Below, piece after piece: positions 9,011 to 61,432 of a DNA stretch of 64,000 bases. The notes under the pieces are model-generated. The model did no database searches. It saw nothing but the letters and a program-made list of their open reading frames with translations, and was not told where the DNA came from. The first letter of the stretch is position 1. Every line of letters starts with the position of its first letter. Origin of the DNA: Candidatus Dojkabacteria bacterium (GTDB taxonomy: Bacteria > Patescibacteriota > Dojkabacteria > J137); NCBI GenBank assembly GCA_030834985.1, contig JAUQWV010000006.1:76168-140167 (forward strand), written 5' to 3'. The translations under genes were made by a program, and so were the position numbers.

Positions 9011-9579
9011 GGTAGATTTAAACTATTTATATCTAAATTTAATTCTATATTTTTTTCAGCATTAACCATAGTATGAAACAATTTTATGGTACAGATACCT
9101 TCACCTTTAAATGTAGTATCAAAAGCATTTACGTCATTTAAATTATCCGGTACTGCTTCAAAAGAAACAAATTTACCTGTAAGCCTTGTAAAACCAATAC
9201 CTTTACAAAATGGAGTAGCAGCGGTATTAGAGCTTGGATTTATAGTTATATCCTGAGGTAAGATTCTTGCAATAAAAGTACTATCCTTAGTACACCTTAC
9301 ATTATTATTAACAGTTGAAGTTTTTCTGCAGTTATATGCAAAATATTGATTACCAGAAATAAATATTGAGTAGTGATCTGGAGTAACACCTTCAGTCCCA
9401 GCAGAGAGTGAATTTTTAGCTTTATTTTGTTCTGTTTTGATTACACTAACTAGTTCAGAATATGCATTTTGCATCTCGGAAGTTGCTCTAAAATTCATTA
9501 GACCGCTCCAGCCAAGACCCATTAAAATAGCAACTATCGCCATTACCATTATTATTTCAAACAAGGAAAACGCTTTCAT
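9007..9579 (-). CDS. type IV minor pilin / pseudopilin
   Basis: Prepilin-type N-terminus MKAFSLFEIIMVMAIVAIL with Glu at +5. Confidence 0.65.
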   Translation of the reverse strand: MKAFSLFEIIMVMAIVAILMGLGWSGLMNFRATSEMQNAYSELVSVIKTEQNKAKNSLSAGTEGVTPDHYSIFISGNQYFAYNCRKTSTVNNNVRCTKDSTFIARILPQDITINPSSNTAATPFCKGIGFTRLTGKFVSFEAVPDNLNDVNAFDTTFKGEGICTIKLFHTMVNAEKNIELNLDINSLNLP

Positions 9580-9583
9580 ACTT

Positions 9584-10378
9584 TCAGTATAACTGAAAAA
9601 GTTTTACAAAGTAATCCTGCAGAACTAAAGTCAAAATATATCCTGTAGCTAAAAAAGGTACAAACGGAATTAATACATTTTTATAGCGTCTGATTATTAT
9701 TACATAAACAATAGAAATAGCAGAAGCGGCCATTAAAGTATAAAAAAATGAGTAGAAAACTGCAGGTACTCCTAACATCAGGCCAATACTTGCAAGAATA
9801 TCAACATCGCCGTCTCCCATACCACGCTGCTTTGTAAGACGCACAATTAGCCATATAATTAATCCGCCTACAAGTCCGGCTATTAGGTTTGACAATGTAC
9901 CTAAAGGTATAAGACCAAATACATAGCTCGTCTCTGTATTTTCAAGTAAAACTCTTAAAATAAGAAAAGCTAAATTTATAATTAAACAGAATAAAATCAT
10001 TCTCTTTGTAGTAATCTCTGGAATAGAAAAAGAGATTAGATCAAAAAGAGACAAATAGAGAAGGAATAGTATAAATATTACAAGTGAAGATAAATAAACT
10101 AAACCTACTACAAAATTAATAGCTAAGATATCTAAGTACTCGTTTAGTTTTATTGCAATTAATATTCCCCACAATAATGCAATTCCTAGTCCTAAATAGA
10201 AATAAAGTGAAAAGTACTTATCTTTTTTTTGTTTAATTAACAAAATTGGAGAAATAATATAGAAAAGAAAGTCTTTTCTTGATTCAAACAAGATTACATC
10301 AGTGTAATTTTGATAAGCAAAAAAGAACAAGATTTTGTATGCAACATAGCTAAAAAACAGTGAGATTATTAAAAGCAC
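9584..10378 (-). CDS. pilD: prepilin peptidase (A24 family) PilD
   Basis: Polytopic membrane protein, 264 aa, with the GMGDGD-like region (QRGMGDGDVDILASIGLMLG) typical of PilD/A24. Confidence 0.75.
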   Translation of the reverse strand: MLLIISLFFSYVAYKILFFFAYQNYTDVILFESRKDFLFYIISPILLIKQKKDKYFSLYFYLGLGIALLWGILIAIKLNEYLDILAINFVVGLVYLSSLVIFILFLLYLSLFDLISFSIPEITTKRMILFCLIINLAFLILRVLLENTETSYVFGLIPLGTLSNLIAGLVGGLIIWLIVRLTKQRGMGDGDVDILASIGLMLGVPAVFYSFFYTLMAASAISIVYVIIIRRYKNVLIPFVPFLATGYILTLVLQDYFVKLFQLY

Positions 10379-10399
10379 TTTTTTAAGTTAAAAATTACA

Positions 10400-12192: not shown

Positions 12193-13770
12193 TTATTGTT
12201 GTAATAAAATGTCAATCTCATTAGGATTTACACTTAATGATTTTGCTTGATCTTTAGATATCAAGCCCTGTTTTACCATTAAAACGAGTGATTTCTCCAT
12301 TGATATCATACCCGTATCGCTGCTTGTTTGAATAATATTATCGATCTGGAACGTCTTTTTTTCTCTTACAGCATTTCTTACACTTGGAGTAGATAGTAAG
12401 ATCTCAACAGCAGGCTTTCGGCCGCCTGAAGGGAGCGGAACCAGTTTTTGAGAGATTACAGCTCTAAGTACTGAGGACAACTGTACCCTTATTTGGTCCT
12501 GTTTTTGACTATCAAATATATCAATAACCCTATTTATAGTTTCGCTAGCACCATTTGTATGTAAGGTGGCAAAGACCAAATGTCCAGTTTCTGCAATCTG
12601 CAAAGCAGCTTCAACTGTTTCAAGGTCACGCATTTCACCTACCAAAACAACATCAGGATCCTGTCTTAAAACTGACCTTAATGCGTTGTCCCAAGAAGTA
12701 AAATCTATTCCAAATTCTCTTTGATCAACAAGTCCCATTCCTTTTGGAAATACAAATTCAATCGGATCTTCTAAGGTTACAATATGCTTTGGCTGTGTAA
12801 GATTAATTTGATTTAATATAGCGGCAATTGTTGTTGACTTACCACTACCAGTTGGACCAGTTACCAGAACTAACCCATTAGGAAAATCTGCAAACTGATT
12901 AATCCCTTCAGGCATTCCAAGCTCTGCAATACTTAAAATCTTCTCAGGAATTATTCTTAACGCGATTGAAAAATTACCTGTCTGTTTAAATATGTTTACT
13001 CTAAAACGCCTGTCATTCCAAGTGTATGTTAAATCTACTTCATTAATATTTTCTATTTTTATCTCTTGTCGATTTTTTAATAATTCCTGAACATATTTAT
13101 TTACAATATCTTCTGTTAGAACAGTAGAGGAGGCTAGTTCAAGTTTGCCATCAACTCTAATCATAGTTCTGTAGCCTGGAGTTAAATGAATATCAGAAGC
13201 TTTCTGTTTTATACCTATATCCAGAATCTCAGATAGTTCAAGGTGCCTTCCATTTGTATCAACTATAGGTTTTGCTTTCTCAACTTTTGCTTCAGCAGGT
13301 GGGTTAATCTGAGGAATTTCAGTAATTAACCTCTCCTTAGCCTGTATTGGCTCAGCTTCTGTATTCTGAATCTGTGGAACTTCCAGTTTCATAGAAGCTT
13401 CAAGCTCAGGTAGAGTAGTTGGGCTTTGTGGAACATTAATTTCTAAAGTTTCATTTGCTACATTCGGTATTTTTGCTTGTAAATCAGCAACTTCAGCAGG
13501 ATTATTTACCAGTGGAGGTAAGTTTTGTACTGAATCAGCTTCTAAATCAGGTATATTAGAAAGTTTGTTTTCTAAAGAATCTTTAATATCTTTAGCTTCC
13601 TCAACCTGCGGTTCTTGTACTGGTCCTGAATACTCTTTAACATCATCATCACTATTTGTATTTGTGACAGCAACATTTGAAGAATAATTTGCTGGAGGTG
13701 TCACAAAATTAGGGAGAGGAGAGCCGATAATTTTTGGATCTGTTGTATTGTTTATATTTATTAAAGGCAT
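12193..13770 (-). CDS. pilT: twitching-motility retraction ATPase PilT, with ~190-aa Pro/Glu/Gln-rich N-terminal extension
   Basis: LVLVTGPTGSGKSTT Walker A, DPIEF, LRQDPDVVLVGEMRD, TGHLVFATLHTN PilT motifs in the C-terminal 330 aa. Confidence 0.8.
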   Translation of the reverse strand: MPLININNTTDPKIIGSPLPNFVTPPANYSSNVAVTNTNSDDDVKEYSGPVQEPQVEEAKDIKDSLENKLSNIPDLEADSVQNLPPLVNNPAEVADLQAKIPNVANETLEINVPQSPTTLPELEASMKLEVPQIQNTEAEPIQAKERLITEIPQINPPAEAKVEKAKPIVDTNGRHLELSEILDIGIKQKASDIHLTPGYRTMIRVDGKLELASSTVLTEDIVNKYVQELLKNRQEIKIENINEVDLTYTWNDRRFRVNIFKQTGNFSIALRIIPEKILSIAELGMPEGINQFADFPNGLVLVTGPTGSGKSTTIAAILNQINLTQPKHIVTLEDPIEFVFPKGMGLVDQREFGIDFTSWDNALRSVLRQDPDVVLVGEMRDLETVEAALQIAETGHLVFATLHTNGASETINRVIDIFDSQKQDQIRVQLSSVLRAVISQKLVPLPSGGRKPAVEILLSTPSVRNAVREKKTFQIDNIIQTSSDTGMISMEKSLVLMVKQGLISKDQAKSLSVNPNEIDILLQQ

Positions 13771-13835
13771 AGTTGAATAAACAAACTTATTACACTAAAT
13801 ATTTAACTATATTTTGAAATCACTTACAAGGAGTT

Positions 13836-15620
13836 TTACTCGTTCTTAACTCTTAATACTTCCTCGATTGTAGTTATACCTTCTAAAGCTTTAATAAAAC
13901 CGTCTTGCTGCATTGAAACCATGCCTTCTTTTTGAGCTTGCTCATTGATCTCTGAAATTGTTGAGTTTGTCATTACCATCTTAGAAATAGTTTCGGACAT
14001 TTTCAGTGCTTCAAATATTCCAGTTCTACTTATGTAGCCAGTATTATTACATTTCGGACACCCTTTTGGTTTATATAAAGTTACAGCTTTTGTATTTTTA
14101 TCAAAATGAAGTTTTAACTTATGATTTTCGTCATAGATATTAAAACCGTTTAATGTATCTAAAGACTCATGAAGAGTATCTAAAATCTCAGGAGTAGCTT
14201 CATATGGTTCTTTACATTCACAAAGTACTCTTACAAGTCTTTGCGCCATAACTACATTAACTGTAGAAATTAGAAGGAATGGCTCAACACCCATATCAAT
14301 CATTCTAATGAATGCGCCGGCGGCGCTGTTAGTGTGCACAGTAGATAAAACAAGTCGTCCAACCAGCGCCGCCTGCACAGACAACGCAGCTGTTTCTGAA
14401 TCTCTAATTTCACCAACCAATATTATATCTGGGTCCTGTCTTAAGAAAGACCTTAACCCGTTTGCAAAGGTTAAACCTACATCAGCATTTACCTGAACCT
14501 GATTAACACCATCAACTCTAATTTCAACAGGGTCTTCTAATGTCACAATATTCACCTCTGGAGTATTTAAAATCTTTAAACAACTAGCTAAAGTCTGTGT
14601 TTTTCCACTACCAGTTGGTCCAGTTACTAATATGATTCCCTGTGTCTTTTTAAGTGCATCTTGCAACCTTGCAAGACTTAAACCTCTAATACCAATTTGG
14701 TCTAAACTCATTACTGTTTGAGATTTTTGAAGAAGCCTCATTACAATTTTTTCTCCATATATACTTGGCATTATAGAAACACGGACATCAGTAATACCAC
14801 TACCGCTTTTTACTTGAAAACGTCCATCTTGAGGAACCCTATGCTCATCAATCTTTAGGCTAGAAAGAATTTTAATTCTGGAAACCAAAGGGTTTAAAAG
14901 TTTCTTTGGAATAGTAAGTTTTTCCGATAAAACACCTCGAACTCGAAAACGTACCGATACTTTTTTTTCACGAGGCTCAACATGGATATCCGAAGCTTTA
15001 TTTTTAATACCGTAATCCATAATCATATTAACAATCTTGATTATTGGAGCTTTATCCAAGTCTTGGCCAAGTTCGTTATCTTGATAACTTACACCTAAAT
15101 CGAGCAGAGTATCGTCACCAACTTCCTCTAAAGCTTCATCTACCTCTTTGCCTATTTGTGCGCCATATTTAGTATCAATTATGTGATTGATATCTTCTTC
15201 TGAAGAATAGTATGTTTGAATTCTCTTACCAATTATAGATTCTAAATACTTTACCTTCTGTAAATCTAGAGGATCTTTTAATGCAACCTTTACATAATTT
15301 GGAGTATCTTCAAAAGCAATTGCTAAACTAGACTTTGCAGTTTCTAAGGGAATCTTGTTTAGAGTCTCTACATTAATATCAACCTCTTCTAAATCTACAT
15401 ATTCCATCCCTTGCATTTCGGCATAAGTCTTTGAAATATCTACCGCATTAACCATATTATGTGCAATCAAAAGGTCTTCAGGTTTTTTACCAGTATTAAC
15501 AGCTTCAAATTTTACAGAATTGTACTGCTCTGGATTTATAAACCCTTTTGCAAGAATTGCATCTAAAATATTTGTAATGCCCTTTACAGAAGCAACATTG
15601 TTACCAGAAGAATCGTTCAT
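13836..15620 (-). CDS. pilB: type IV pilus assembly ATPase PilB (GspE family)
   Basis: GIILVTGPTGSGKTQTL Walker A. Tetracysteine motif CECKEPYEA...CPKCNNTGY. N-terminal GSPII-type domain. Confidence 0.9.
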   Translation of the reverse strand: MNDSSGNNVASVKGITNILDAILAKGFINPEQYNSVKFEAVNTGKKPEDLLIAHNMVNAVDISKTYAEMQGMEYVDLEEVDINVETLNKIPLETAKSSLAIAFEDTPNYVKVALKDPLDLQKVKYLESIIGKRIQTYYSSEEDINHIIDTKYGAQIGKEVDEALEEVGDDTLLDLGVSYQDNELGQDLDKAPIIKIVNMIMDYGIKNKASDIHVEPREKKVSVRFRVRGVLSEKLTIPKKLLNPLVSRIKILSSLKIDEHRVPQDGRFQVKSGSGITDVRVSIMPSIYGEKIVMRLLQKSQTVMSLDQIGIRGLSLARLQDALKKTQGIILVTGPTGSGKTQTLASCLKILNTPEVNIVTLEDPVEIRVDGVNQVQVNADVGLTFANGLRSFLRQDPDIILVGEIRDSETAALSVQAALVGRLVLSTVHTNSAAGAFIRMIDMGVEPFLLISTVNVVMAQRLVRVLCECKEPYEATPEILDTLHESLDTLNGFNIYDENHKLKLHFDKNTKAVTLYKPKGCPKCNNTGYISRTGIFEALKMSETISKMVMTNSTISEINEQAQKEGMVSMQQDGFIKALEGITTIEEVLRVKNE

Positions 15621-26379: not shown

Positions 26380-27690
26380 TTATTCTTTGCCGATTACTAA
26401 TATCATATCACCGGAGTAATTATATTTGTAATCGCCGAATATGATTCTAACATCATCCCGCAATATTGCTCTAACAGCCTTTATTGTATTAATAAAATTA
26501 TCTGGAGTTTTACTTGGAATGTACAATCTGTTCTCCTCTACTTTTTCAGTATAGTTTCCCGTCTTTATAACTGTGATTCCTATATTTTCAAACTTTCTTT
26601 TAAGGTTATAAGCAATTCCTGATACATTTGTTGCATTAAATATCTCTATTTGAGCCTGCTCCTTTATTATGGCAATACTAGAAAATACTTTAGATATATC
26701 TTCGTCTAATAAAATATCACTGGCAGGAATCCCTTCCTCTAAATTCGACTTAGTTAAGTCTTCCAAAGTAAGCTGTTGAGAAGCAAATCCTGTCTTTATA
26801 AATGCATTAGAACTAGCAAGATTGGCAACAAATCTTATAAATTGGTCTTTAGTAAAATCAGTACGTAAAATATCACTAAATTCTTTACCATCTAAAAAGT
26901 ATCTATAAAGTTTGTAAGTGTCCCGCAATGACTCTAAAAGCTCTTTTAAGAACATATTCTGACGCTTTAATGAGTCATCTGTAAGAATAGCTTCCTTAGC
27001 AATAAAATCATAAAGCCTACTACCGCCAATAGCCTCATCCTGAGCATAAGAATTTCCCTCGATACTATAGTTTTTATCAGCAATTACTGTAACACCTGTC
27101 TTCTCTATTAAAGTATTTAAGTCAGAATAATTAAATGCAACGTACCTATCTATTCTTATAGCGGAGATCTTTTCAATTATCGTTAATAGATCTATCATTT
27201 TTTCTTCATCTTTAGAGGTTAGAAGATTAAATACGCTTCTTAATGGGAACTTAGCACTCCCTAAATTTACTAAGTAGTTAGGATTATATGAATATAATTT
27301 AAGCTCACCTGTTTGATAATCTAAATTTACAATAGCTAACATATTTATAAAACGATAGTTATTCTTAGTGTCGTCAAAGCCAATAAATACCACGTTAATA
27401 TCTCTTGCATCACTAATAATTTGCGGGGAGTGCTCTATTCCTTCTACATCAACATAAGGAGCGACTTCAATTTGCAAATATCTGTGGATATGAAATCCAA
27501 CAATGAATATTAATAAAACAGAAAGAATAATAAGCACAGTTTTACCTTTAAAAAAGTCTCTGCCAAATGTGTTTCTACGTAGATTAATAGAAGGTCTGCT
27601 TCTACCCGATCTAAAATCTCTAATAAATTTTTTTATAGAGTTATAAAAACTTGAACGTGTAATGTTTAATGGCAATGGAGATTTATCCAT
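26380..27690 (-). CDS. LytR-CpsA-Psr (LCP)-family cell-envelope phosphotransferase-like protein
   Basis: N-terminal TM anchor. The extracytoplasmic domain has an LCP-like core (NMLAIVNLDYQTGELKLYSYNPNYLV...). Weak match by eye. Confidence 0.5.
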   Translation of the reverse strand: MDKSPLPLNITRSSFYNSIKKFIRDFRSGRSRPSINLRRNTFGRDFFKGKTVLIILSVLLIFIVGFHIHRYLQIEVAPYVDVEGIEHSPQIISDARDINVVFIGFDDTKNNYRFINMLAIVNLDYQTGELKLYSYNPNYLVNLGSAKFPLRSVFNLLTSKDEEKMIDLLTIIEKISAIRIDRYVAFNYSDLNTLIEKTGVTVIADKNYSIEGNSYAQDEAIGGSRLYDFIAKEAILTDDSLKRQNMFLKELLESLRDTYKLYRYFLDGKEFSDILRTDFTKDQFIRFVANLASSNAFIKTGFASQQLTLEDLTKSNLEEGIPASDILLDEDISKVFSSIAIIKEQAQIEIFNATNVSGIAYNLKRKFENIGITVIKTGNYTEKVEENRLYIPSKTPDNFINTIKAVRAILRDDVRIIFGDYKYNYSGDMILVIGKE

Positions 27691-34087: not shown

Positions 34088-34369
34088 TTAGTCTTTTTTA
34101 ATTAATAATGCTCTTAAAACGTCAGGATTAAGTCTTAATTCTTTTCTAAATTCACTTGATTTAGCTGAGGATAGTTCTACATCGTAAAAGTAGTAGAAAC
34201 CTTCTTTAAATTTATTGATTGGATAGGCTAGCATTCTCTTGCCTAAGTTAGTGCTCAATTTAATATTTCCGCCTAAATCCTTTACATTTGATTCAACCTT
34301 AGGAAGAACCTTTTCTTTAATATCTTCTGTACTAAGTGGCTTTAACACTAATGCTAATTCGTACTTCAT
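34088..34369 (-). CDS. rpsF: 30S ribosomal protein S6
   Basis: MKYELALVLKP N-terminus. rpsF-ssb-rpsR order conserved. Confidence 0.85.
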   Translation of the reverse strand: MKYELALVLKPLSTEDIKEKVLPKVESNVKDLGGNIKLSTNLGKRMLAYPINKFKEGFYYFYDVELSSAKSSEFRKELRLNPDVLRALLIKKD

Positions 34370-51567: not shown

Positions 51568-51639
51568 GCGAGCGTTGGTTAATTGGTAAACCACCGGTCT
51601 CCAAAACCGGGACTCTCAGTTCGAGTCTGAGCGCTCGTG
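51568..51639 (+). tRNA. tRNA-Trp (anticodon CCA)
   Basis: GCGAGCGTTGGTTAATTGGTAAACCACCGGTCTCCAAAACCGGGACTCTCAGTTCGAGTCTGAGCGCTCGTG. Aligns arm-for-arm with E. coli tRNA-Trp. Confidence 0.85.
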
Positions 51640-52911: not shown

Positions 52912-53586
52912 ATGAAGAAAAAAATTGAAATTGACACAAGCAGAACCTACACATTAGAAGAGGCAGTAAAATTACTGCCAGAGCTTTCTTTAAGCAAGTT
53001 TGTTGGTTCAGTTGATGTTGATATAGTTCTAAATCTAAAAGAGAAACAAAAAAAGGAAAGCATCAGAGGAAGCGTGACTCTACCCTTTAGTATGGGTGAT
53101 GAAAAAAAAGTTGTTGTGATTTGTGAAGAAAAAGATGAAAAAGCTGCACTAGCAGCCGGTGCTAATAAAGCAGGTTTAAGTGTGGTTGACGATATTGCAA
53201 ACGGAAAAATCGACTTTAATGTTGTAATTGCAACACCAAGTGTTATGGGACAATTAGTAAAGATTGGTAAGATTTTAGGTCCAAAAGGCTTAATGCCAAA
53301 TCCAAAGAACGGAACAGTAACTACCGACGTAGATAAAGCTGTAAAAAGCTTTAAGGCTGGCCGATTAAACTTTAAGTCAGTACCTGATCAAGGAGCAATT
53401 AGACTAAAAGTAGCTAAATTAGATATGCCTGTTGAAAATATACAGGAGAATATCATTGCTTTATTAAAAGTAGTTTTTGCTGAAAGTAAAAAATTATCAT
53501 CTAATCCATTCAAAAAAGTTACAGTATCCCCTACTATGGGTGCTGGATTAAAGTTAGATGTTAATGATATAATCAAATACGTTTAA
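52912..53586 (+). CDS. rplA: 50S ribosomal protein L1
   Basis: 224 aa. KILGPKGLMPNPKNGTVT motif. Confidence 0.9.
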   Translation: MKKKIEIDTSRTYTLEEAVKLLPELSLSKFVGSVDVDIVLNLKEKQKKESIRGSVTLPFSMGDEKKVVVICEEKDEKAALAAGANKAGLSVVDDIANGKIDFNVVIATPSVMGQLVKIGKILGPKGLMPNPKNGTVTTDVDKAVKSFKAGRLNFKSVPDQGAIRLKVAKLDMPVENIQENIIALLKVVFAESKKLSSNPFKKVTVSPTMGAGLKLDVNDIIKYV

Positions 53587-53599
53587 AATTGAATAACGT

Positions 53600-53738
53600 T
53601 TAAGACAGCAGGTAGCAATTTTAATTGCGTAAATCCAGCCGAGACGCCAAGATAGACCAAAGTAAGATAATTTACTAAGTATTTATAGGCGCTCTCAAAA
53701 AGAGCGCTTTTGTTTTATTAAATATTAATTAACCAAAA
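53600..53738 (+). promoter_or_regulatory. rplJ leader region with attenuator/terminator-like hairpin (GCGCTCT caaaa AGAGCGC + TTTTGTTTT at 53689-53716)
   Basis: 139-nt untranslated gap between rplA and rplJ. Position corresponds to the classical L10(L12)4-binding autoregulatory leader. Confidence 0.55.
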
Positions 53739-54701: not shown

Positions 54702-54724
54702 CTTTGAAATATTTTTGTAAATAC

Positions 54725-54766
54725 AAGCAGGTTAGTTTATATTAAGGTAAACAACCTGCTTTTTTA
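54725..54766 (+). terminator. intrinsic terminator after rplL
   Basis: AAGCAGGTT...AACCTGCTT stem followed by TTTTTT. Confidence 0.75.
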
Positions 54767-54776
54767 ATTAATATAT

Positions 54777-55511
54777 ATGGATATTATTTGGAATTTGCTA
54801 CTACAAAGAGGCATGAGCCCGGTAGAAATTGATCTATACAAGGAGGTATTTATTATCTTAATAATGCTTCCTGTTGTTACTACAATTGTAGGTATCGCAA
54901 GATATGTAATAGGAACTAGAACTCTTGGCATGTTTACACCTGTGATAATAACTTTCCTGCTCTATGAGTTTGGTAGAATTGGAACCGAACAAGATATTCT
55001 TCGAGCACTTAAATATGGAATTATTTTCTTTTTAATTGTTCTAATTGCAAGTTGGCTCAGCTACAAAATATTAAAACGTGTCCGAATGAACTATATCCCT
55101 AAGCTCACATTAGTGACCATCGGTGTAATAGTCGCGTTATTCTTGTCATTTATTGTTTCGGGCATATTAGGATTTACAGGGCCAGTATTTATAAACAAGT
55201 TTACTTTGGTTATTTTAGCTATATTAGTGGAGCCGTTTGCATCAGCCTTTGCCAGAAAGAGTTTTAGCTATGGCGTCTCCTCTGCTATTGATACATTCAT
55301 ACTTTCAGCGTTTTGTTACATAATCATATCACTAACTAAGGTACAGGAATTTGCAGAGGCTAACCTACTAGTAATTCCTGTACTAATAATTGTGAATATT
55401 TATTTAGGCAGATTTACAGGCTTACGCTTAAGTGAGTATTTAAGGTTCCGAAATATATTATTTTCAGACAACAAGGCGAGTGATAATGATACAAATAAGC
55501 AAAGTAATTGA
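54777..55511 (+). CDS. seven-helix (7TM) integral membrane protein. Candidate stand-alone homologue of the 7TM module that accompanies RimK-like ATP-grasp / QEGLA-type systems.
   Basis: Seven hydrophobic ~20-aa segments in 244 aa. Polar C-terminal tail. 3' end overlaps the next gene by 32 nt. Confidence 0.5.
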   Translation: MDIIWNLLLQRGMSPVEIDLYKEVFIILIMLPVVTTIVGIARYVIGTRTLGMFTPVIITFLLYEFGRIGTEQDILRALKYGIIFFLIVLIASWLSYKILKRVRMNYIPKLTLVTIGVIVALFLSFIVSGILGFTGPVFINKFTLVILAILVEPFASAFARKSFSYGVSSAIDTFILSAFCYIIISLTKVQEFAEANLLVIPVLIIVNIYLGRFTGLRLSEYLRFRNILFSDNKASDNDTNKQSN

Positions 55512-56934
55512 AAACAGAAAATTAGTACTAGGGCGTAATGAACGATATCTAAAATACATTAGACCGCATAACTTAAGCCGTGCTACAAAAATTGCAGATG
55601 ACAAAATTCTTACAAAAAGGATTTTGAATAAAGCTGATATACCCGTCCCCAAATTAGTTAAAGTGATAAAAGATAGAAGCCAATTAAATAGCTTTGACTT
55701 TGCTTCATTACCTAAAAGTTTTGTAATAAAACCTGTTAAAGGAGTTCGTGGAGGCGGAGTGACAATCATATATAATCGTGCAAAAGACGGTAAATGGATA
55801 GGATCAAGTAATAAAAGATTCTCGGAAGAAGATTTAAGATCCTTAATACAAGATATTTTAGATGGCCGGTACTCTCTTTTTAATGAACCAGATAGAGTTT
55901 TGATAGAAGAACGAGTACGTCCGCATAAATCTTTTAAATACTATTCGTACAAAGGCGCGCCCGATGTACGGATTATTGTGTTTAATTCTATTCCAATTAT
56001 GAGTTATATACGCTTGCCTACCAAAGAATCTAACGGGCGCGCCAACTTAGATCTAGGAGCAATAGGTGCAGGTATTGATATGGCAGTTGGAAAAACAACC
56101 GGAGCTATAATTGGAAAATCTACCCCTATAGAATATGTCCCAAATACCAATTTAGCCTTATCTGGATTAAAAATTCCATATTGGGACCGAATACTAAGAT
56201 ATGCAGTTGAAGCAAGTAAATTAACAAAACTAGGTTTTGCTGCTATCGATTTTCTAATTGATGAAGATAAAGGCCCACTAATTGTAGAGTTAAATGCCCG
56301 ACCAGGATTATCCATTCAGCTGGCAAATGAAGACGGTCTACGATGGAGATTAAAAAAAGCATCTGATATACGCGTAAAAACTACTGAGCGTGCTGTTAGA
56401 CTAGCTAAAGATCTATTCGGAGGCGAAATTGAAGAAGAAATTGAAAGTATTTCAGGTAAACAAGTTATTGGCTTACTTGAAGAAGTAAAAATATTTAATT
56501 TAGATGGTGAAAGTTTTGAACAGGTAACTGCCAAGATCGATACTGGAGCTTCGTTTACCTCGTTAGATACTGAGCTAGCTATAAAGTTGGGCATGCAGGA
56601 AGTTATTGAATTTGCAAAACCGATTCTAGAATCTATCCCTAAAAACTTTGAAACAGTAGATGAGCTTAAAAAATACTCTGCTGATAACCAACTAGAAGAA
56701 CGGTTAGAGCAACATCCTCTAATTGTTGATACTGCTATAATAAAATCTAGTAATGGCTTGGATTACAGAATTATAGTACCTATGAAGTTTCAGATTTCAG
56801 GTCTTGATGTCGAATCAAATGCTACTATTGCTAATAGAACTAACCTTAATTACAAACTAATTCTTGGAGAAAAAGATCTTAAGAAATTTCTAATAGATCC
56901 TAGTAAAAAATTAATATTAAAGCTTAAAAATTAA
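55480..56934 (+). CDS. Fusion of a RimK-related ATP-grasp amidoligase (alpha-L-glutamate-ligase-related type) with a C-terminal retropepsin-like aspartic-protease domain (RimB/COG4067 type)
   Basis: N-terminus NERYLKYIRPHNLSRATKIADDKILTKRILNKADIPVP and ATP-grasp core. C-terminus VIGLLEEVKIFNLDGESFEQVTAKIDTGASFTSLD, with DTGA at nt 56539-56550. Confidence 0.65.
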   Translation: MIMIQISKVIENRKLVLGRNERYLKYIRPHNLSRATKIADDKILTKRILNKADIPVPKLVKVIKDRSQLNSFDFASLPKSFVIKPVKGVRGGGVTIIYNRAKDGKWIGSSNKRFSEEDLRSLIQDILDGRYSLFNEPDRVLIEERVRPHKSFKYYSYKGAPDVRIIVFNSIPIMSYIRLPTKESNGRANLDLGAIGAGIDMAVGKTTGAIIGKSTPIEYVPNTNLALSGLKIPYWDRILRYAVEASKLTKLGFAAIDFLIDEDKGPLIVELNARPGLSIQLANEDGLRWRLKKASDIRVKTTERAVRLAKDLFGGEIEEEIESISGKQVIGLLEEVKIFNLDGESFEQVTAKIDTGASFTSLDTELAIKLGMQEVIEFAKPILESIPKNFETVDELKKYSADNQLEERLEQHPLIVDTAIIKSSNGLDYRIIVPMKFQISGLDVESNATIANRTNLNYKLILGEKDLKKFLIDPSKKLILKLKN

Positions 56935-56936
56935 TC

Positions 56937-58436
56937 ATGGATTTTATTATACAGCAGGCTGTTGGATCTGATATTAAAGTGTTACTTGAGCTAAAAGATC
57001 AGGTTAGACTGCACACATACAAAGAATTTATCCCAGATCTTAAGTGGGAAGATATTAAGTACAACGAAACTTATGATGCAAGGGCGCAAAAGATAATAAG
57101 CCAATTTCAGGAAAAAAAAGTTTTCATCTTTTGCGCCAAAGATAATTCTCAAAATATTCTAGGCTATATAAAAATTATCCACAGAGGTTCCATAGTAGAA
57201 ATACAGGATTTATTTATTATCCCTACTGCTCAAGGAATGGGAATTGGATCACAACTTATGATTAAAGCTTGGGACTTATTTAAAGACCAGGATTCTGTAT
57301 GGCAGCTTAAAGTTAATGTACTCGAAAATAATACAAAGGCAATTGAATTCTATAAAAAACACGGCTTTGCTCCAGATATGGGCAGAATTTTCTACTATAA
57401 AATTGGAGATAATAAAAAAGCTAATACAATTAAAATGTATAAATTAAACGAGAAAACTACATCTCAGTTTTTACAATCGGCAAGGCTTATTTTAAATAAT
57501 TTTGTCGAGAACAATATTCCTATAATTGAAGTTGACCCATTATCAAATAGTTATATTGTATCTGTAAATGGCAACTATATTTACTCTCGAGGTATACTAA
57601 CACCACTCAATACTCTATCGGCATCTCATTTAGCAAATGATAAATTAACTAGCAAAAAAATCTTACAGTTTTTTAGAATTCCTACCCCTGATTATTTATG
57701 TTTTAGAAAGAAAGAAAATACAGATATAAAAGAAATTAGACTAAAGCTTGAAGAATTTTTACAAAAACATAGCAGGATTATCGCTAAACCACAAAACGGG
57801 CTTAAAAGCAAAGATGTATTTTTGAATATTCAAAATGTTAATCAGGCGCTGGAAGCTTATAATCATATTATTAATAAAGAATATAAAGGCGTTTTATTTG
57901 AAAGCTTTGCTGAAGGTGATGTTCATAGACTGCTCTTAGTTGACGGGACCCTTATAGCTGCACTAAGACGTGAAAAAGGCTACATTATTGCCGATGGTAT
58001 TAGCACACTTAATCAATTAATAACTCAAAAAAATCAGTATTTAGATCATGGAGGTAGAAATGTAGGCAGAATTAGAATTGATGAGAAATTGAATGCTGTA
58101 CTTAAAGATCAAGGATTTGATTCGTTAGAAGATGTACCTGCAAAAGATACTAAAGTATTTACAGAAATAGATTTTAGCAACCTTGAAACTGTTACAGAAG
58201 TTACTGACATTGTAAGCCCAGCATTAACACAAAAGCTATCTGGCTTAGCAAATAAGATCGGCCTTGGGCTAACAGGAATCGACGTTATCTCCACAGATAT
58301 TTCTGATGAGGGTAAATGCAGTATTATTGAAATCAATAAAGAGCCAAGCATCGATTTTCATCATTATCCCGATTACGGAGAAGCTAAAGATGTTGCAGGA
58401 GAGATTGTCAGGGCAATAATCAGGAAATACTCTTAA
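56937..58436 (+). CDS. GNAT N-acetyltransferase fused to ATP-grasp amino-acid ligase domain (architecture like Ngg, the N-acetylglutaminylglutamine synthetase)
   Basis: GNAT motif A IQDLFIIPTAQGMGIGSQLM...YKKHGF (aa 1-160). ATP-grasp core HLANDKLTSKKIL...IIAKPQNG...VLFESFAEGDVHRLLLVDG...ADGISTLNQLI...IIEINKEPS. Confidence 0.65.
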   Translation: MDFIIQQAVGSDIKVLLELKDQVRLHTYKEFIPDLKWEDIKYNETYDARAQKIISQFQEKKVFIFCAKDNSQNILGYIKIIHRGSIVEIQDLFIIPTAQGMGIGSQLMIKAWDLFKDQDSVWQLKVNVLENNTKAIEFYKKHGFAPDMGRIFYYKIGDNKKANTIKMYKLNEKTTSQFLQSARLILNNFVENNIPIIEVDPLSNSYIVSVNGNYIYSRGILTPLNTLSASHLANDKLTSKKILQFFRIPTPDYLCFRKKENTDIKEIRLKLEEFLQKHSRIIAKPQNGLKSKDVFLNIQNVNQALEAYNHIINKEYKGVLFESFAEGDVHRLLLVDGTLIAALRREKGYIIADGISTLNQLITQKNQYLDHGGRNVGRIRIDEKLNAVLKDQGFDSLEDVPAKDTKVFTEIDFSNLETVTEVTDIVSPALTQKLSGLANKIGLGLTGIDVISTDISDEGKCSIIEINKEPSIDFHHYPDYGEAKDVAGEIVRAIIRKYS

Positions 58437-59298
58437 AATATTCATCCAAATACTTTAAGACAGTAAAATCATGTCTAAATGCTGGGGCAGGATTTACTTC
58501 AAACAGATATATTTTTGAATTTTTATTAGAAACTACAACATCTACACCTGCTACTTGTAAATTTTTTACCTTTGCAGCTTTTACTGCAATTTCTGATATT
58601 TCAGGAAAGTCCTCTGGTTTTAAATACTCTACTTCTGCTCCTAAAGATACATTGTTTCTAAACTCAGCAGAATCTTTATTTCTAACTCTTTTTTTCACTA
58701 CTGCTACTTTTTCGCCGAAAACTACAAATCGATAATCAAAATCATTAGGAATCAATTCTTGAATAAAATAGTATTCATCTTTTAGCTCTTCTTTAATCTT
58801 TACATAGTCATCAAATGAATTAAGCAGATAGACACCTTTCCCTTCATTGCCTCTAGTAGCTTTTAACACTGCAGGGTAACCGCCAAGCTTTTGTATATGG
58901 GATTCTAAATTCTCATCAAGAAGTCTTTTATGAATAATAAATGTTGCAGGTAAATTCAGGCCATTCGTAATTAATAAGTAGTGTTGGTGTATTTTTGAAC
59001 CGTAATTTGAAAGTCCTACTGCACTGTCAGCAAATTTTTTTGAATGTTTGATTAAGTGTTTAGCTAAAGTGGAAGCTATATCAGGGCGTTTTTCCCACGT
59101 TCTGAAATAGATGAAATCGTAATCTAAAATATTTACACCATCAATTGTTACAGTAATAGGATCTCTAAAATCAAAGATTACATCATCCAGATAACCTATT
59201 ATATAAGTATTTCCTGTTTCCTGCCCGTACTTATTAAAGTAATCTATAAAGTCAGTATCGTAAGGCTGTCTTCCTGCTTTCAGTACAAGTATTTTCAT
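58420..59298 (-). CDS. RimK/LysX/GshB-family ATP-grasp ligase
   Basis: KIHQHYLLITNGLNLPAT, YPAVLKATRGNEGKGVYLL, YFIQELIP, DYRFVVFGEKVAVVKKR, LQVAGVDVV, LFEVNPAPAF. Confidence 0.7.
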   Translation of the reverse strand: MKILVLKAGRQPYDTDFIDYFNKYGQETGNTYIIGYLDDVIFDFRDPITVTIDGVNILDYDFIYFRTWEKRPDIASTLAKHLIKHSKKFADSAVGLSNYGSKIHQHYLLITNGLNLPATFIIHKRLLDENLESHIQKLGGYPAVLKATRGNEGKGVYLLNSFDDYVKIKEELKDEYYFIQELIPNDFDYRFVVFGEKVAVVKKRVRNKDSAEFRNNVSLGAEVEYLKPEDFPEISEIAVKAAKVKNLQVAGVDVVVSNKNSKIYLFEVNPAPAFRHDFTVLKYLDEYFKSIS

Positions 59299-59323: not shown

Positions 59324-61432
59324 ATGAATTATATTACAAAAGGTATGAGCTTAGAAGCTATAAATCCTCAAGAAAGAAGCCCTGAATTAATTCCAATAGA
59401 AAGAGCTCAGCTAGAAATAATCCAACTTGGTGAAAATATAGCTAAAGAAATAAAGAATCTGAAAGAAGCTTCTAAAGTAATGATCATAATCACTGCCATA
59501 TTTAATAATAACCTTGATTTCTCTAATCCTGAATTAGTAAGCTTAGAAATTGATAATGTAAGAAAATCTCTATTAGAAATATGCGACAATGCCGAAATTC
59601 CTGAGCCGGAAGCGATCTTGCAGCTAAAAGAAATCATACAAAGTTTTGATTTTGGATCTCCTTTAGATTTAAAAGAACTTATATCTAAGATTGACAAGCT
59701 GTTGTTAGAAGTCATTAAAAATGAATCTATTCCCTTAACAGCAAAGAGCAAATTCTTCCAGAAAATTAAAGGTATTTGTGAAGTAAATCATCAAAATAGT
59801 GTTGCCAATAAAATTCAAATGACTGAATCAACAATATCATTATCTCAAGATATGCCGCTTCCAGTTAATGTTAGCTATATTTTAAATCCCGAGATGATTT
59901 CAGAAAGAGATGCTGCGCTAAGACGATTAAAGAATAGTATACAGACTCAGGAATCACTACTATTTCAATACTCTGCAAGTGAATACATTGAAAAGATCCA
60001 TGGAACTGATCTAATTGATGCTGAAGAGGAGTATTACAGACAGTCAGAGTTTTATAACTCTAATAAACCAGAGCTAGTAGAAAATACAGTCCCTAAAAAC
60101 AAAAAGGAAGGCTACCCTCTTGAACTCATAGTGATTCTTAAAGGCGGGCCTAAAGAAGTTACTTTTCGCCAACTGAATATGGCTAAAATACAATTATTAA
60201 GAATCTATCGTGAATTTATTAATACCTTAATAACTACAGAAATCATTGATAATAGAATTATTGAAGAACAATTATCAGAACTTGAAAATTCTTTACGAAT
60301 AGGAATAGATGAAACCTCAGAAGCTGAAATTAAAAGACGAAAGCAAACCAGACGAATCTCATTATTTGACATGCTACATATGGGTACCGTTGCAGCAAAT
60401 AAAGTTAACCCAAATATGACTTCAGAAAATCAAGTTCCACTATCGCAAGAAGTTTTAGATTATACGGGAGGAACAAAGCCAGCAAATACTTCTAGAGAGC
60501 TTTTTATAAGTAAATTAACCAAAGAGCAAAGAAGAAGGTTTGAAGTGTTAGAGTCTTTAAAAGACTATCAGTTTGATGAGACTCAAGATGGAATTCCAAG
60601 TCGGATTTATAGAAGATTCATAGAAAAACTTGGAATAGCTACCCCACTTGAAGATGTAGATGAACAATTGGAATTATCTGAAAAGAAAATACCTAACAAT
60701 AAATTTAAAACATACACTATTAAAGTTAGACCTGGTGGCACAGTAGCGGTCGACCATGGGTTTAGAACAATTTTAATTCCCAGAACTTGGAAACCTAAAT
60801 TATCAAGTATTTTAATATCTATCCAACATGAGATTGGCCACGTTGCACAACAATTATCACGAGATCAGAGCTTTCTGCCTGGTGTTAATATTTTAAGCGG
60901 ACTTGGCAGATCAGGCACATTAGCCGAAGCTGGAGCAATAAAATCTGAAGCCTTAATGGCAGAACTTCTAATTAAAGAACGCGAAATTAATACTTATCAT
61001 GTAAGTATTGTAAAAGGAATTATTGAAGGAAAAAACTATTGGGAACTAGTTGAAATGGTATTAAAGACTCTTTTTGAAAGGAATATTAGAAATAATGAAA
61101 ATAAATCAAAAGAAGAGCTAGCCAGAACTGCTATTAAAACTGTCAATAGAGCCTACTCCTCTTTAGGCGCAATGGGAAACAAGACAGATCCACATGGACG
61201 ATATCCGACCTATGCTGGATTTCTATCATATACTTACCAAGGCTTGCCAGAGTTTAGCCAGCAGCCATTTTATATAAGTGGTATTCCTGCACACAGAATA
61301 GATCTCCAAGAGTTTATGCCACAACCTCAAATTGAAGGTGTCCCAATTACAGAAGAACTAATAGCAGAAATTATAATAGATGCAGCCTACGAAGTCTTAG
61401 CAGAAAATGGGATTATAAATACAGCTAATTAA
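59324..61432 (+). CDS. 702-aa protein with C-terminal HExxH zincin-like metallopeptidase domain (possibly DUF1704/MATCAP/QEGLA-family-like); N-terminal ~480 aa unassigned
   Basis: ISIQHEIGHVAQ (HEIGH at nt 60827-60841). Candidate third ligand in KSEALMAE ~40 aa downstream (nt 60941-60964). Confidence 0.5.
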   Translation: MNYITKGMSLEAINPQERSPELIPIERAQLEIIQLGENIAKEIKNLKEASKVMIIITAIFNNNLDFSNPELVSLEIDNVRKSLLEICDNAEIPEPEAILQLKEIIQSFDFGSPLDLKELISKIDKLLLEVIKNESIPLTAKSKFFQKIKGICEVNHQNSVANKIQMTESTISLSQDMPLPVNVSYILNPEMISERDAALRRLKNSIQTQESLLFQYSASEYIEKIHGTDLIDAEEEYYRQSEFYNSNKPELVENTVPKNKKEGYPLELIVILKGGPKEVTFRQLNMAKIQLLRIYREFINTLITTEIIDNRIIEEQLSELENSLRIGIDETSEAEIKRRKQTRRISLFDMLHMGTVAANKVNPNMTSENQVPLSQEVLDYTGGTKPANTSRELFISKLTKEQRRRFEVLESLKDYQFDETQDGIPSRIYRRFIEKLGIATPLEDVDEQLELSEKKIPNNKFKTYTIKVRPGGTVAVDHGFRTILIPRTWKPKLSSILISIQHEIGHVAQQLSRDQSFLPGVNILSGLGRSGTLAEAGAIKSEALMAELLIKEREINTYHVSIVKGIIEGKNYWELVEMVLKTLFERNIRNNENKSKEELARTAIKTVNRAYSSLGAMGNKTDPHGRYPTYAGFLSYTYQGLPEFSQQPFYISGIPAHRIDLQEFMPQPQIEGVPITEELIAEIIIDAAYEVLAENGIINTAN

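Follow-up and report, generated by a model that had tools for sequence, protein, structure and literature searches.

A gene in a 64,000-nucleotide (nt) stretch of the genome of a Candidatus Dojkabacteria bacterium (contig JAUQWV010000006.1; the whole stretch is called the window hereafter) encodes a real fusion of a GNAT N-acetyltransferase with an ATP-grasp amino-acid ligase. This gene, which an earlier note had flagged as resembling the N-acetylglutaminylglutamine (NAGG) synthetase Ngg, forms an optional part of a conserved rlo-like locus. The core of that locus consists of a seven-transmembrane (7TM) gene and a gene for an RloC-type ligase fused to a retropepsin. Sequence and tree comparisons indicate that its Ngg-like architecture arose independently of Ngg. 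With a probability of about one half, we propose that the enzyme makes and/or N-acetylates a short peptide within an rlo-like system in which such molecules would be built and trimmed.

The fused protein and the origin of its architecture

The flagged open reading frame (ORF), at 56937-58436 on the plus strand, starts with ATG and encodes 499 amino acids (aa). It is a genuine ORF of a bacterium from the candidate phyla radiation (CPR), in a window with 33% G+C. All the motifs quoted in the earlier note are present in its translation, namely IQDLFIIPTAQGMGIGSQL (aa 89-107), FYKKHGF (138-144), HLANDKLTSKKIL (231-243), AKPQNG (283-288), FAEGDVHRLLLVDG (324-337) and IEINKEPS (464-471). Two domains can be delimited:

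56937..57446, plus strand: GNAT N-acetyltransferase domain (aa 1-170), from Acetyltransf_1, motifs and Foldseek
57462..58436, plus strand: ATP-grasp amino-acid ligase domain (aa 176-499) of the CphA G-domain/GshAB/Ngg type, from TIGR02068, PDB and Foldseek

In Pfam, Acetyltransf_1 matched aa 42-146 (E 8.6e-14) and the ATP-grasp matches of the C-terminal part were weak. Among NCBIfam models, the cyanophycin synthetase TIGR02068 aligned aa 176-496 with its positions 155-472 of 862, which correspond to the G domain (E 6.2e-46; 156.8 bits against a cut-off of 850), followed by Ngg TIGR03103 (E 1.4e-34; 119.6 bits against a curated equivalog cut-off of 569) and GshAB (E 1.6e-24). A sequence search of the PDB gave, for aa 190-492, CphA1 (7lgm, E 2.7e-24) and then CphA2 and GshAB, the GNAT matches of the N-terminal part being weak. 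AlphaFold2 reached a predicted local distance difference test score (pLDDT) of 38 from the single sequence, and a pLDDT of 87.1 with a predicted template modeling score of 0.79 from an alignment of 10 sequences. Foldseek placed the ligase part of the model next to CphA1 (7wae, E 5.1e-21), with CphA2 (7ta5) and GshAB (3ln6) at up to 1e-19, and the N-terminal part next to GNATs at about 1e-10, including 8osp, PaiA, SpeG and RimI. The two-domain architecture claimed in the earlier note is therefore borne out by Pfam, NCBIfam and the AlphaFold2 model searched with Foldseek, and the C-terminal half, instead of a non-ligase fold, matches the CphA1, CphA2 and GshAB ligases by profile, sequence and predicted structure.

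The residues of TeCphA1 were mapped on the flagged protein through a HMMER alignment, with the roles assigned by Miyakawa et al. (PMC9427784). General ATP-grasp residues are kept, K261, R309, R323, N394, D431 and E450 of TeCphA1 corresponding to K284, R331, R345, N415, D449 and E465 of the flagged protein; K284, R331, D449 and E465 are invariant across the family and R345 and N415 nearly so. Judging by this conservation, the ligase domain looks active. The acetyl-CoA loop of the GNAT domain (Q-x-x-G-x-G) is present as QGMGIG, as is the FY..GF motif.

To our knowledge, Ngg is the only characterized enzyme in which a GNAT domain is joined to an ATP-grasp ligase. The resemblance to it proposed in the earlier note is real: BLASTP aligned the flagged protein (55-475) with the 595-aa Ngg encoded on pSymB of S. 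meliloti (161-574) at 25% identity (E 9e-33), collinearly over both domains. What did not hold is membership of the Ngg family, given the TIGR03103 score well under the equivalog cut-off and the position in the tree described below; by profile scores the ligase domain appears closer to the CphA G domain than to Ngg. The same note had remarked that no asnO-like amidotransferase is present, and this also holds. In S. meliloti, asnO, the gene for the NAGG amidotransferase, lies directly upstream of ngg, whereas no asparagine-synthase or amidotransferase domain was found in window ORFs of at least 436 aa, no asnO in the gene tables of ten related loci (L001, L002, L004, L007, L010, L013 and L015-L018) or in the eight cluster ORFs available for L005, and no M42 peptidase in the window or among the genes tabulated for related loci. 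Since asnO is absent, the product is probably not N-acetylglutaminylglutamine amide (NAGGN), as the earlier note had argued, and an N-acetylated peptide is the most reasonable guess. The gene should be annotated neither as Ngg nor as cyanophycin synthetase.

Close relatives are few. A filter-free HMMER search of 1.84 billion representatives returned only 17 proteins below E 1e-30, and the full GNAT plus ligase architecture was found in two of them, P0002 and P0008. The next relatives (P0007, P0009 and P0014, 325-332 aa) consist of the same ligase without the GNAT domain, which is missing from the protein of L005 too. In the species-genome collection, the sole match was to Candidatus Dojkabacteria bacterium KatS3mg085 (AP024679.1, 862 kb), with 49% identity over aa 181-499 only. 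A profile search with the first alignment recovered the same 9 proteins and no others, and, in two scans of metagenome contigs, one profile gave no match and the other a single unrelated GNAT-only match.

A neighbor-joining tree (a distance method only) of 185 ligase domains with 100 bootstraps united the Dojkabacteria ligases in one clade (97/100), the sister of which is a group of stand-alone ligases (P0011/P0019/P0157; 96/100). Ngg was sister to the Dojkabacteria clade in 0/100 bootstraps and ranked 109th of 185 by distance. Within the clade, the fusion was found in the subclade of the window protein, P0001-6 and P0008, and the GNAT-less L005, P0009 and P0014 branch off below the GNAT-bearing proteins; the fusion therefore appears to have arisen inside the Dojkabacteria clade, and the likeness of its architecture to that of Ngg would thus be convergent. 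GNAT bearers alone were monophyletic in only 2/100 bootstraps and the GNAT-less P0007 falls inside their group (74/100), which suggests that the GNAT domain was lost at least once.

L010/L011, the sister group, encode the GNAT in a gene of its own, which lies tail-to-tail beside the ligase gene. Searched with a profile of the fused GNAT domains, this stand-alone protein gave 70.9 bits, in a match along almost its whole length, and the GNAT of Ngg 24.4 bits; in pairwise comparison the stand-alone and fused GNATs matched at E 2e-10. Such a coupling in two independent gene arrangements is evidence of the Rosetta-stone type that GNAT and ligase may function together. In genomes with GNAT-less ligases, a partner GNAT may be encoded elsewhere.

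The rlo-like locus and its variation

In the window, the flagged gene belongs to the series nusG-rplK-rplA-rplJ-rplL, 7TM, RloC/retropepsin, flagged gene, RimK-like gene (convergent), a 702-aa orphan, mreB and ndk. The elements between rplL and mreB, besides the flagged gene, are:

54725..54765, plus strand: terminator-like hairpin with a U-run, between the rplL stop (54701), which it follows directly, and the 7TM gene, which begins 12 nt further on, from RNA folding
54777..55511, plus strand: RloB-type 7TM protein, 244 aa, without the periplasmic inactive-transglutaminase domain (PF14402)
55480..56934, plus strand: RloC-type ATP-grasp ligase (aa 13-296) and RimB/RloA-type retropepsin (aa 326-479) in one protein (PF14397, PF05618)
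58420..59298, minus strand: RimK-family ATP-grasp ligase, 292 aa, convergent, overlapping the 3' end of the flagged gene by 17 nt (PF08443)
59324..61432, plus strand: orphan of about 700 aa (702 aa), facultative, with an HExxH...E motif and homologues in L007 and L015

By the family assignments of its products, this is an rlo-type gene set, which the earlier note had overlooked, while its description of the neighbors as ligases and proteases agrees with Pfam and NCBIfam. The 7TM protein matches 7TM_transglut (PF14402, E 2.3e-17; 63.8 bits against a cut-off of 25), and covers the NCBIfam RloB model NF052267 at positions 312-506 of 508 only (62.5 bits against 900). The RloC/retropepsin protein probably starts at the ATG at 55486; P0165, 99% identical to it, has 482 aa. 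Its ligase part scores above the cut-off of PF14397 (E 1.3e-60, 205 bits) and reaches 258.6 bits with TIGR02291 (alpha-L-glutamate ligase-like; cut-off 314.2), and its peptidase part, with DTGA at aa 354-357, scores above the cut-off of PF05618 (E 4.5e-9, 36.8 bits) and has matches to RimB and RloA3. It has 4718 homologues at E<=1e-10, the best 120 of which are all 460-489 aa long and, where their source is named, come from Dojkabacteria or Patescibacteria. The RimK-like ligase matches PF08443 (E 6.3e-20) and TIGR00768 (98.8 bits against a cut-off of 143.4).

The locus was compared with 11 further ones (L001, L002, L004, L005, L007, L010, L013 and L015-L018). The 7TM gene and the RloC/retropepsin fusion are kept in all 12, as is the motif K[IV]DTGA. 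The CphA-G-like ligase is found in 10 of the 12 loci, L016 and L018 having the core only, and carries a fused GNAT in four (window, L015, L013 and L001); the GNAT is absent from L004, L005, L002, L007 and L017 and is the separate tail-to-tail gene mentioned above in L010. RimK-like ligases occur in zero, one or two copies on either strand, with a second copy in L005 and, in L001, a plus-strand gene directly downstream of the ligase gene that it overlaps by 4 nt. No RimK-like ligase was found in L016 or L010, and its slot in L018 holds a 284-aa ORF with no Pfam match and no BLASTP match to the RimK-like protein of the window.

The HExxH protein of about 700 aa is restricted to the window, L015 and L007 among the 12 loci, where it always sits between the RimK-like gene and mreB (L007 4973-7033, 32% identity, E 2e-83; L015 7081-9210, 38%, E 4e-140). 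Residues H502, E503, H506 and E535, which form a gluzincin-like motif, are invariant in the three. It has no Pfam match at E<=10, no sequence relative in the PDB and no similarity to a 525-aa insert of L010. The protein might be a metallopeptidase with an accessory role in the ligase system.

The components are conserved to different degrees. Identity to the window proteins is 48-80% for RloC/retropepsin, the best conserved component, and 25-69% for the CphA-G-like ligase. Divergence of this ligase, of the RimK-like ligase and of the 7TM protein is much faster than that of L12 or RloC/retropepsin; in L007, for example, the identity is 91% for L12 and no more than 32% for the CphA-G-like ligase. 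Such a pattern points to modules that diversify rapidly or are replaced, within a locus that keeps its synteny. Among the 7TM proteins, the C-termini show no conservation. In most loci mreB lies beside the cluster and an M23/LysM peptidase gene a few genes on, but the adjacency to mreB is lost in L005, L016 and L010.

The earlier note drew attention to a position right after rplL and, from it, to ribosomal-protein modification by RimL and RimK. The 7TM and RloC/retropepsin genes and the terminator-like hairpin separate rplL from the flagged gene. The window hairpin folds at -18.8 kcal/mol (z -4.06; 0 of 200 shuffles fold as well), and a hairpin with a U-run also occurs between rplL and the 7TM gene in L015, L013, L004, L001, L007, L005 and L018, that is, in 8 of 8 loci folded; it is followed by a -10-like box, TGGTATAAT or GGGTATAAT, in L001, L005 and L018. 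A generic scan for promoters and terminators yielded no more sites than shuffled sequence, and a bulge and the loop hid the rplL terminator from it until direct folding revealed the structure. The cluster follows rplL in 11 of the 12 loci, but in L010 it lies away from rplL, near mscL, and GNAT-less versions of the ligase hold the same post-rplL position. These results stand against the proposed link to ribosomal proteins, and the most plausible reason for the fixed position is synteny inherited within a lineage of small genomes, rather than a functional link.

The suggested likeness to RimL fared no better in the family comparison. The GNAT domain is of the Acetyltransf_1 type, its best NCBIfam match is RimI (TIGR01575), at 45.1 bits below the 86.4-bit cut-off, and no RimL model is among the NCBIfam and Pfam matches listed for the flagged protein; Acetyltransf_3, which we take to be the RimL-type Pfam family, gave E 0.006 against the 8.6e-14 of Acetyltransf_1. 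In E. coli, RimK extends a Glu-Glu tail of S6. The S6 of the window (34088-34369, minus strand; 93 aa) ends in ...LIKKD, with no acidic Glu-Glu tail even though the genome encodes RimK-family ligases; the last residues of L12 are ...VEVK. As S6 lacks an acidic tail, it was rejected as a RimK target.

Other features of these loci may be recorded. In L017, a DUF3541 protein (9425-10381) is encoded between two ligases, and a PEGA-domain protein of about 480 aa is encoded near the cluster, mreB or ndk in L005 (12072-13559), L017 (12688-14115) and L018 (10315-11781). In L010 (2102-2635 and 4302-9526, on a 147-kb contig with 44% G+C), the 7TM-RloC/A-ligase-GNAT cluster contains the 525-aa insert, which has no Pfam match; the cluster lies about 1.7 kb from the mechanosensitive-channel gene mscL and adjoins a gene for a trypsin-like protease. 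Further elements of the window are a weak promoter-like match (TTGTAA-17-TATATT, 54715-54743) that shares positions with the hairpin, an element similar to the L10 leader upstream of rplJ (53581-53722, plus strand; 35.1 bits against an Rfam gathering score of 44, E 0.0098) and, upstream of the secE-nusG region, a tRNA gene (51568-51639, plus strand). In most bacteria rpoB and rpoC follow rplL; here they do not, the rlo-like cluster filling the post-rplL position, and the 64-kb window has no ORF of more than 874 aa. Two adjacent secretion ATPases of the PilB/T2SSE type (525 and 594 aa; 12193-15620, minus strand) and a 436-aa ORF with no Pfam match at E<=1e-5 (26380-27690, minus strand) are also encoded in the window.

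Among distant relatives of the ligase, P0043 combines a CphA-G-like ligase and an RloA-like retropepsin in one protein, and P0010, P0012, P0013 and P0017 are giant proteins of up to 2287 aa with two or three tandem CphA-G-like ATP-grasp domains, P0013 ending in a C-terminal acylphosphatase domain. Both P0043 and the giant proteins may be multi-module ATP-grasp assembly lines for peptides.

Proposed function and its alternatives

In the function that we propose, the ATP-grasp domain would turn the α-carboxylate of a short peptide or amino acid into an acyl-phosphate and so activate it for joining to the amine of an incoming amino acid, and the GNAT domain would move an acetyl group from acetyl-CoA to the free N-terminal amine of the substrate or of the product. 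The cluster would build and trim a short non-ribosomal peptide, probably rich in acidic residues. The contribution of the flagged enzyme would be to supply or to cap a di- or oligopeptide starter that is N-acetylated, either as a finished accessory product or as a primer, to be lengthened by the RimK-like and RloC-like ligases and trimmed by the retropepsin, with the 7TM protein tying the process to the membrane. By analogy with Ngg and with the rlo system, which is tied to osmotic stress (PMC12239564), the physiological role might be osmotic or envelope homeostasis. The substrate, the order of the steps and the choice between a free peptide and a protein target are points that we infer.

Several observations weigh against this proposal. 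In CphA1, the β-Asp-Arg primer and the incoming Asp are recognized by E215, H267 and R458, of which E215 contacts the Arg side chain of the primer and R458 the α-carboxylate of the incoming Asp (PMC9427784). These cyanophycin-specific residues are altered in the flagged protein, to H231 (a variable position), K290 in the P-loop and D473, respectively, and the specificity of the ligase is therefore not readable from homology; at D473 the charge is reversed, which might indicate that the acceptor is cationic and not an acidic amino acid. With 26-43% identity, compared with 52-69% for the ligase domain, the GNAT domain is the faster-evolving of the two. Some homologues have a degenerate acetyl-CoA loop (QGKGID, QGKGIE and HSQGVG), and close relatives can do without the domain altogether, as does P0007, the ligase domain of which is 57% identical; acetylation may therefore be non-essential or not always active. 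Finally, the target might be a protein C-terminus or a cell-wall precursor.

The last of these possibilities has been considered in its own right. The variable ATP-grasp ligases might add amino acids to peptidoglycan or another envelope precursor, as Ddl or D-aspartate ligase do, with the GNAT acetylating a free amine of the precursor and the 7TM protein providing the coupling to the membrane. We regard this as unlikely, although it would accommodate the cell-shape and beta-lactam phenotypes of P. aeruginosa rlo mutants, for which a link to peptidoglycan is suspected (PMC12239564), the mreB and M23/LysM peptidase genes near most loci, the fast divergence of the accessory ligases and the 7TM protein, which is expected of diversifying surface structures, and the replacement of the α-carboxylate-binding Arg of CphA1 by D473, which fits a cationic acceptor such as a Lys side chain. 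The cluster contains no Mur-ligase, Fem-type or flippase gene, mreB is not always adjacent, and the characterized members of the ligase clade (CphA G domain, GshAB and Ngg) all work on free small peptides or N-acyl amino acids, the C-terminal or α-carboxylate of which they activate and extend by one amino acid (PMC9427784, PMC8070244). The second idea of the earlier note was that proteins are tagged, the ligases extending a C-terminus and the GNAT acetylating an N-terminus, for instance of L7/L12, L10 or S6. RimK polyglutamylates S6 and RimB cleaves that addition (PMC12239564), a pair paralleled by the RimK-like and RloC-like ligases and the RimB-like, presumably cytoplasmic retropepsin of the cluster, and the location after rplL and the RimI match of the GNAT point the same way. 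We nevertheless hold tagging to be quite unlikely, in view of the terminator-like hairpins and promoter-like boxes after rplL, the displaced L010 cluster and the GNAT-less variants in the same place, the low RimI score and the absence of RimL from the matches listed, the C-termini of S6 and L12, the unconserved C-termini of the 7TM proteins and the membership of the ligase domain in the small-peptide CphA-G/GshAB/Ngg clade rather than the RimK clade.

That the gene is an ordinary ngg orthologue, making N-acetylglutaminylglutamine for an amidotransferase encoded elsewhere in the genome and so NAGGN as the end product, seems very unlikely. The same domain order, the collinear alignment and the TIGR03103 match would be expected, and the osmotic-stress link of rlo (PMC12239564) and the proximity of mscL to the L010 cluster would suit an osmolyte; the low score with that model, the lack of the first ~160 residues of Ngg, the absence of asnO and M42 genes, the tree and the gain of the GNAT in a clade with GNAT-less basal members speak against it. 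It is extremely improbable that the ligase domain elongates poly-Asp or a storage polymer of the cyanophycin type: the G domain of cyanophycin synthetase is its best match by profile, by sequence and by structure, but the 499-aa protein lacks the N and M domains, falls far short of the TIGR02068 cut-off and has not kept E215, H267 and R458, and no cyanophycinase gene lies nearby. Two further candidates were rejected. A defense system was discarded as none of the five cluster proteins had a PADLOC match; a graspetide or other peptide that is made by ribosomes and then modified (RiPP) was discarded as the ligase is outside the graspetide family and the gaps of the cluster, only 75, 2 and 25 nt, leave no room for a precursor ORF.

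A broader version of the proposed peptide-building system is tentative and, in our opinion, rather unlikely: the locus might be a fixed-site, modular ATP-grasp assembly line of Dojkabacteria and some relatives, in which a core is combined with interchangeable modules (CphA-G-like ligase with or without GNAT, RimK-like ligase, DUF3541 and HExxH proteins) and lineage-specific N-acetylated peptides are made at the membrane or cell surface. If so, it would represent a new class of peptide products, neither ribosomal nor made by non-ribosomal peptide synthetases, in episymbiotic bacteria with reduced genomes, and a tractable handle on the product of rlo systems.

Relation to known systems

The fold, the class of chemistry and the neighboring system are all of known kinds. 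In the literature searched on RloC/RloB and on Dojkabacteria and ATP-grasp, we did not find an independent fusion of a GNAT to a CphA-G-like ligase as an optional module of an rlo locus, nor an rlo-type locus with a fused ligase-peptidase and a transglutaminase-less 7TM protein at a fixed site, as in the Dojkabacteria and Patescibacteria loci sampled here. CPR genomes that keep the core at a fixed site and swap accessory ligases offer comparative leverage to separate core, optional and co-varying modules, and the cluster yields small, soluble candidate enzymes for finding out what rlo-type systems make. The GNAT-ATP-grasp architecture arises here again in a different genomic setting, and it can therefore be argued that N-acetylation and peptide ligation are naturally coupled.

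The rlo operon of P. aeruginosa, described in 2025, encodes the retropepsin RloA, the inactive-transglutaminase 7TM protein RloB and the ATP-grasp protein RloC; RloA peptidases cut polyglutamate, deletion of rloB or rloC suppresses the loss of RloA, and 96% of the RloB sequence matches were reported from Proteobacteria (PMC12239564). The Dojkabacteria cluster is alike in encoding together an RloB-type 7TM protein, an RloC-type ligase (TIGR02291/PF14397) and a DTG retropepsin of the RimB/RloA family. It differs in that its host is a CPR bacterium, its 7TM protein has no transglutaminase-like domain, its proteins fall below the equivalog-level scores of RloB and TIGR02291, and CphA-G-like and RimK-like ATP-grasp ligases and an HExxH protein are added. 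Moreover, RloA is secreted, whereas in the cluster the ligase carries the peptidase at its C-terminus, with no signal peptide; the peptidase is therefore probably cytoplasmic, like RimB.

Ngg (TIGR03103; S. meliloti SMb20482-type and P. aeruginosa PA3460) also joins an N-terminal GNAT to a C-terminal ATP-grasp domain of the same broad clade in one polypeptide. A passage of PMC8070244, citing Sagot 2010, describes it as N-acetylating Gln and ligating it to Gln, and by analogy the chemistry of the flagged protein would be an N-acetylation and the formation of one peptide bond. The flagged protein is, however, some 100 aa shorter at the N-terminus, and its gene lies in a multi-ligase rlo-like cluster instead of an asnO-ngg operon, with neither the asnO-type amidotransferase nor the M42 peptidase that usually completes the Ngg cassette. 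The G domain of CphA1 and CphA2 (7wac, 7lg5, 7lgm, 7ta5 and 8fxh) is the closest relative of the ligase domain by profile, sequence and predicted fold, and the residues for ATP, Mg2+ and stabilization of the acyl-phosphate are conserved, but the N domain and the MurE-like M domain are lacking and a GNAT is fused instead.

In logic, the function proposed here also resembles a mammalian pathway, in which NAT8L forms N-acetyl-Asp and RIMKLA and RIMKLB extend it to N-acetyl-Asp-Glu(-Glu). There too, a GNAT-type enzyme supplies an N-acetyl amino acid to which RimK-like ligases add glutamate, but the enzymes are separate eukaryotic proteins with no peptidase or 7TM partner.

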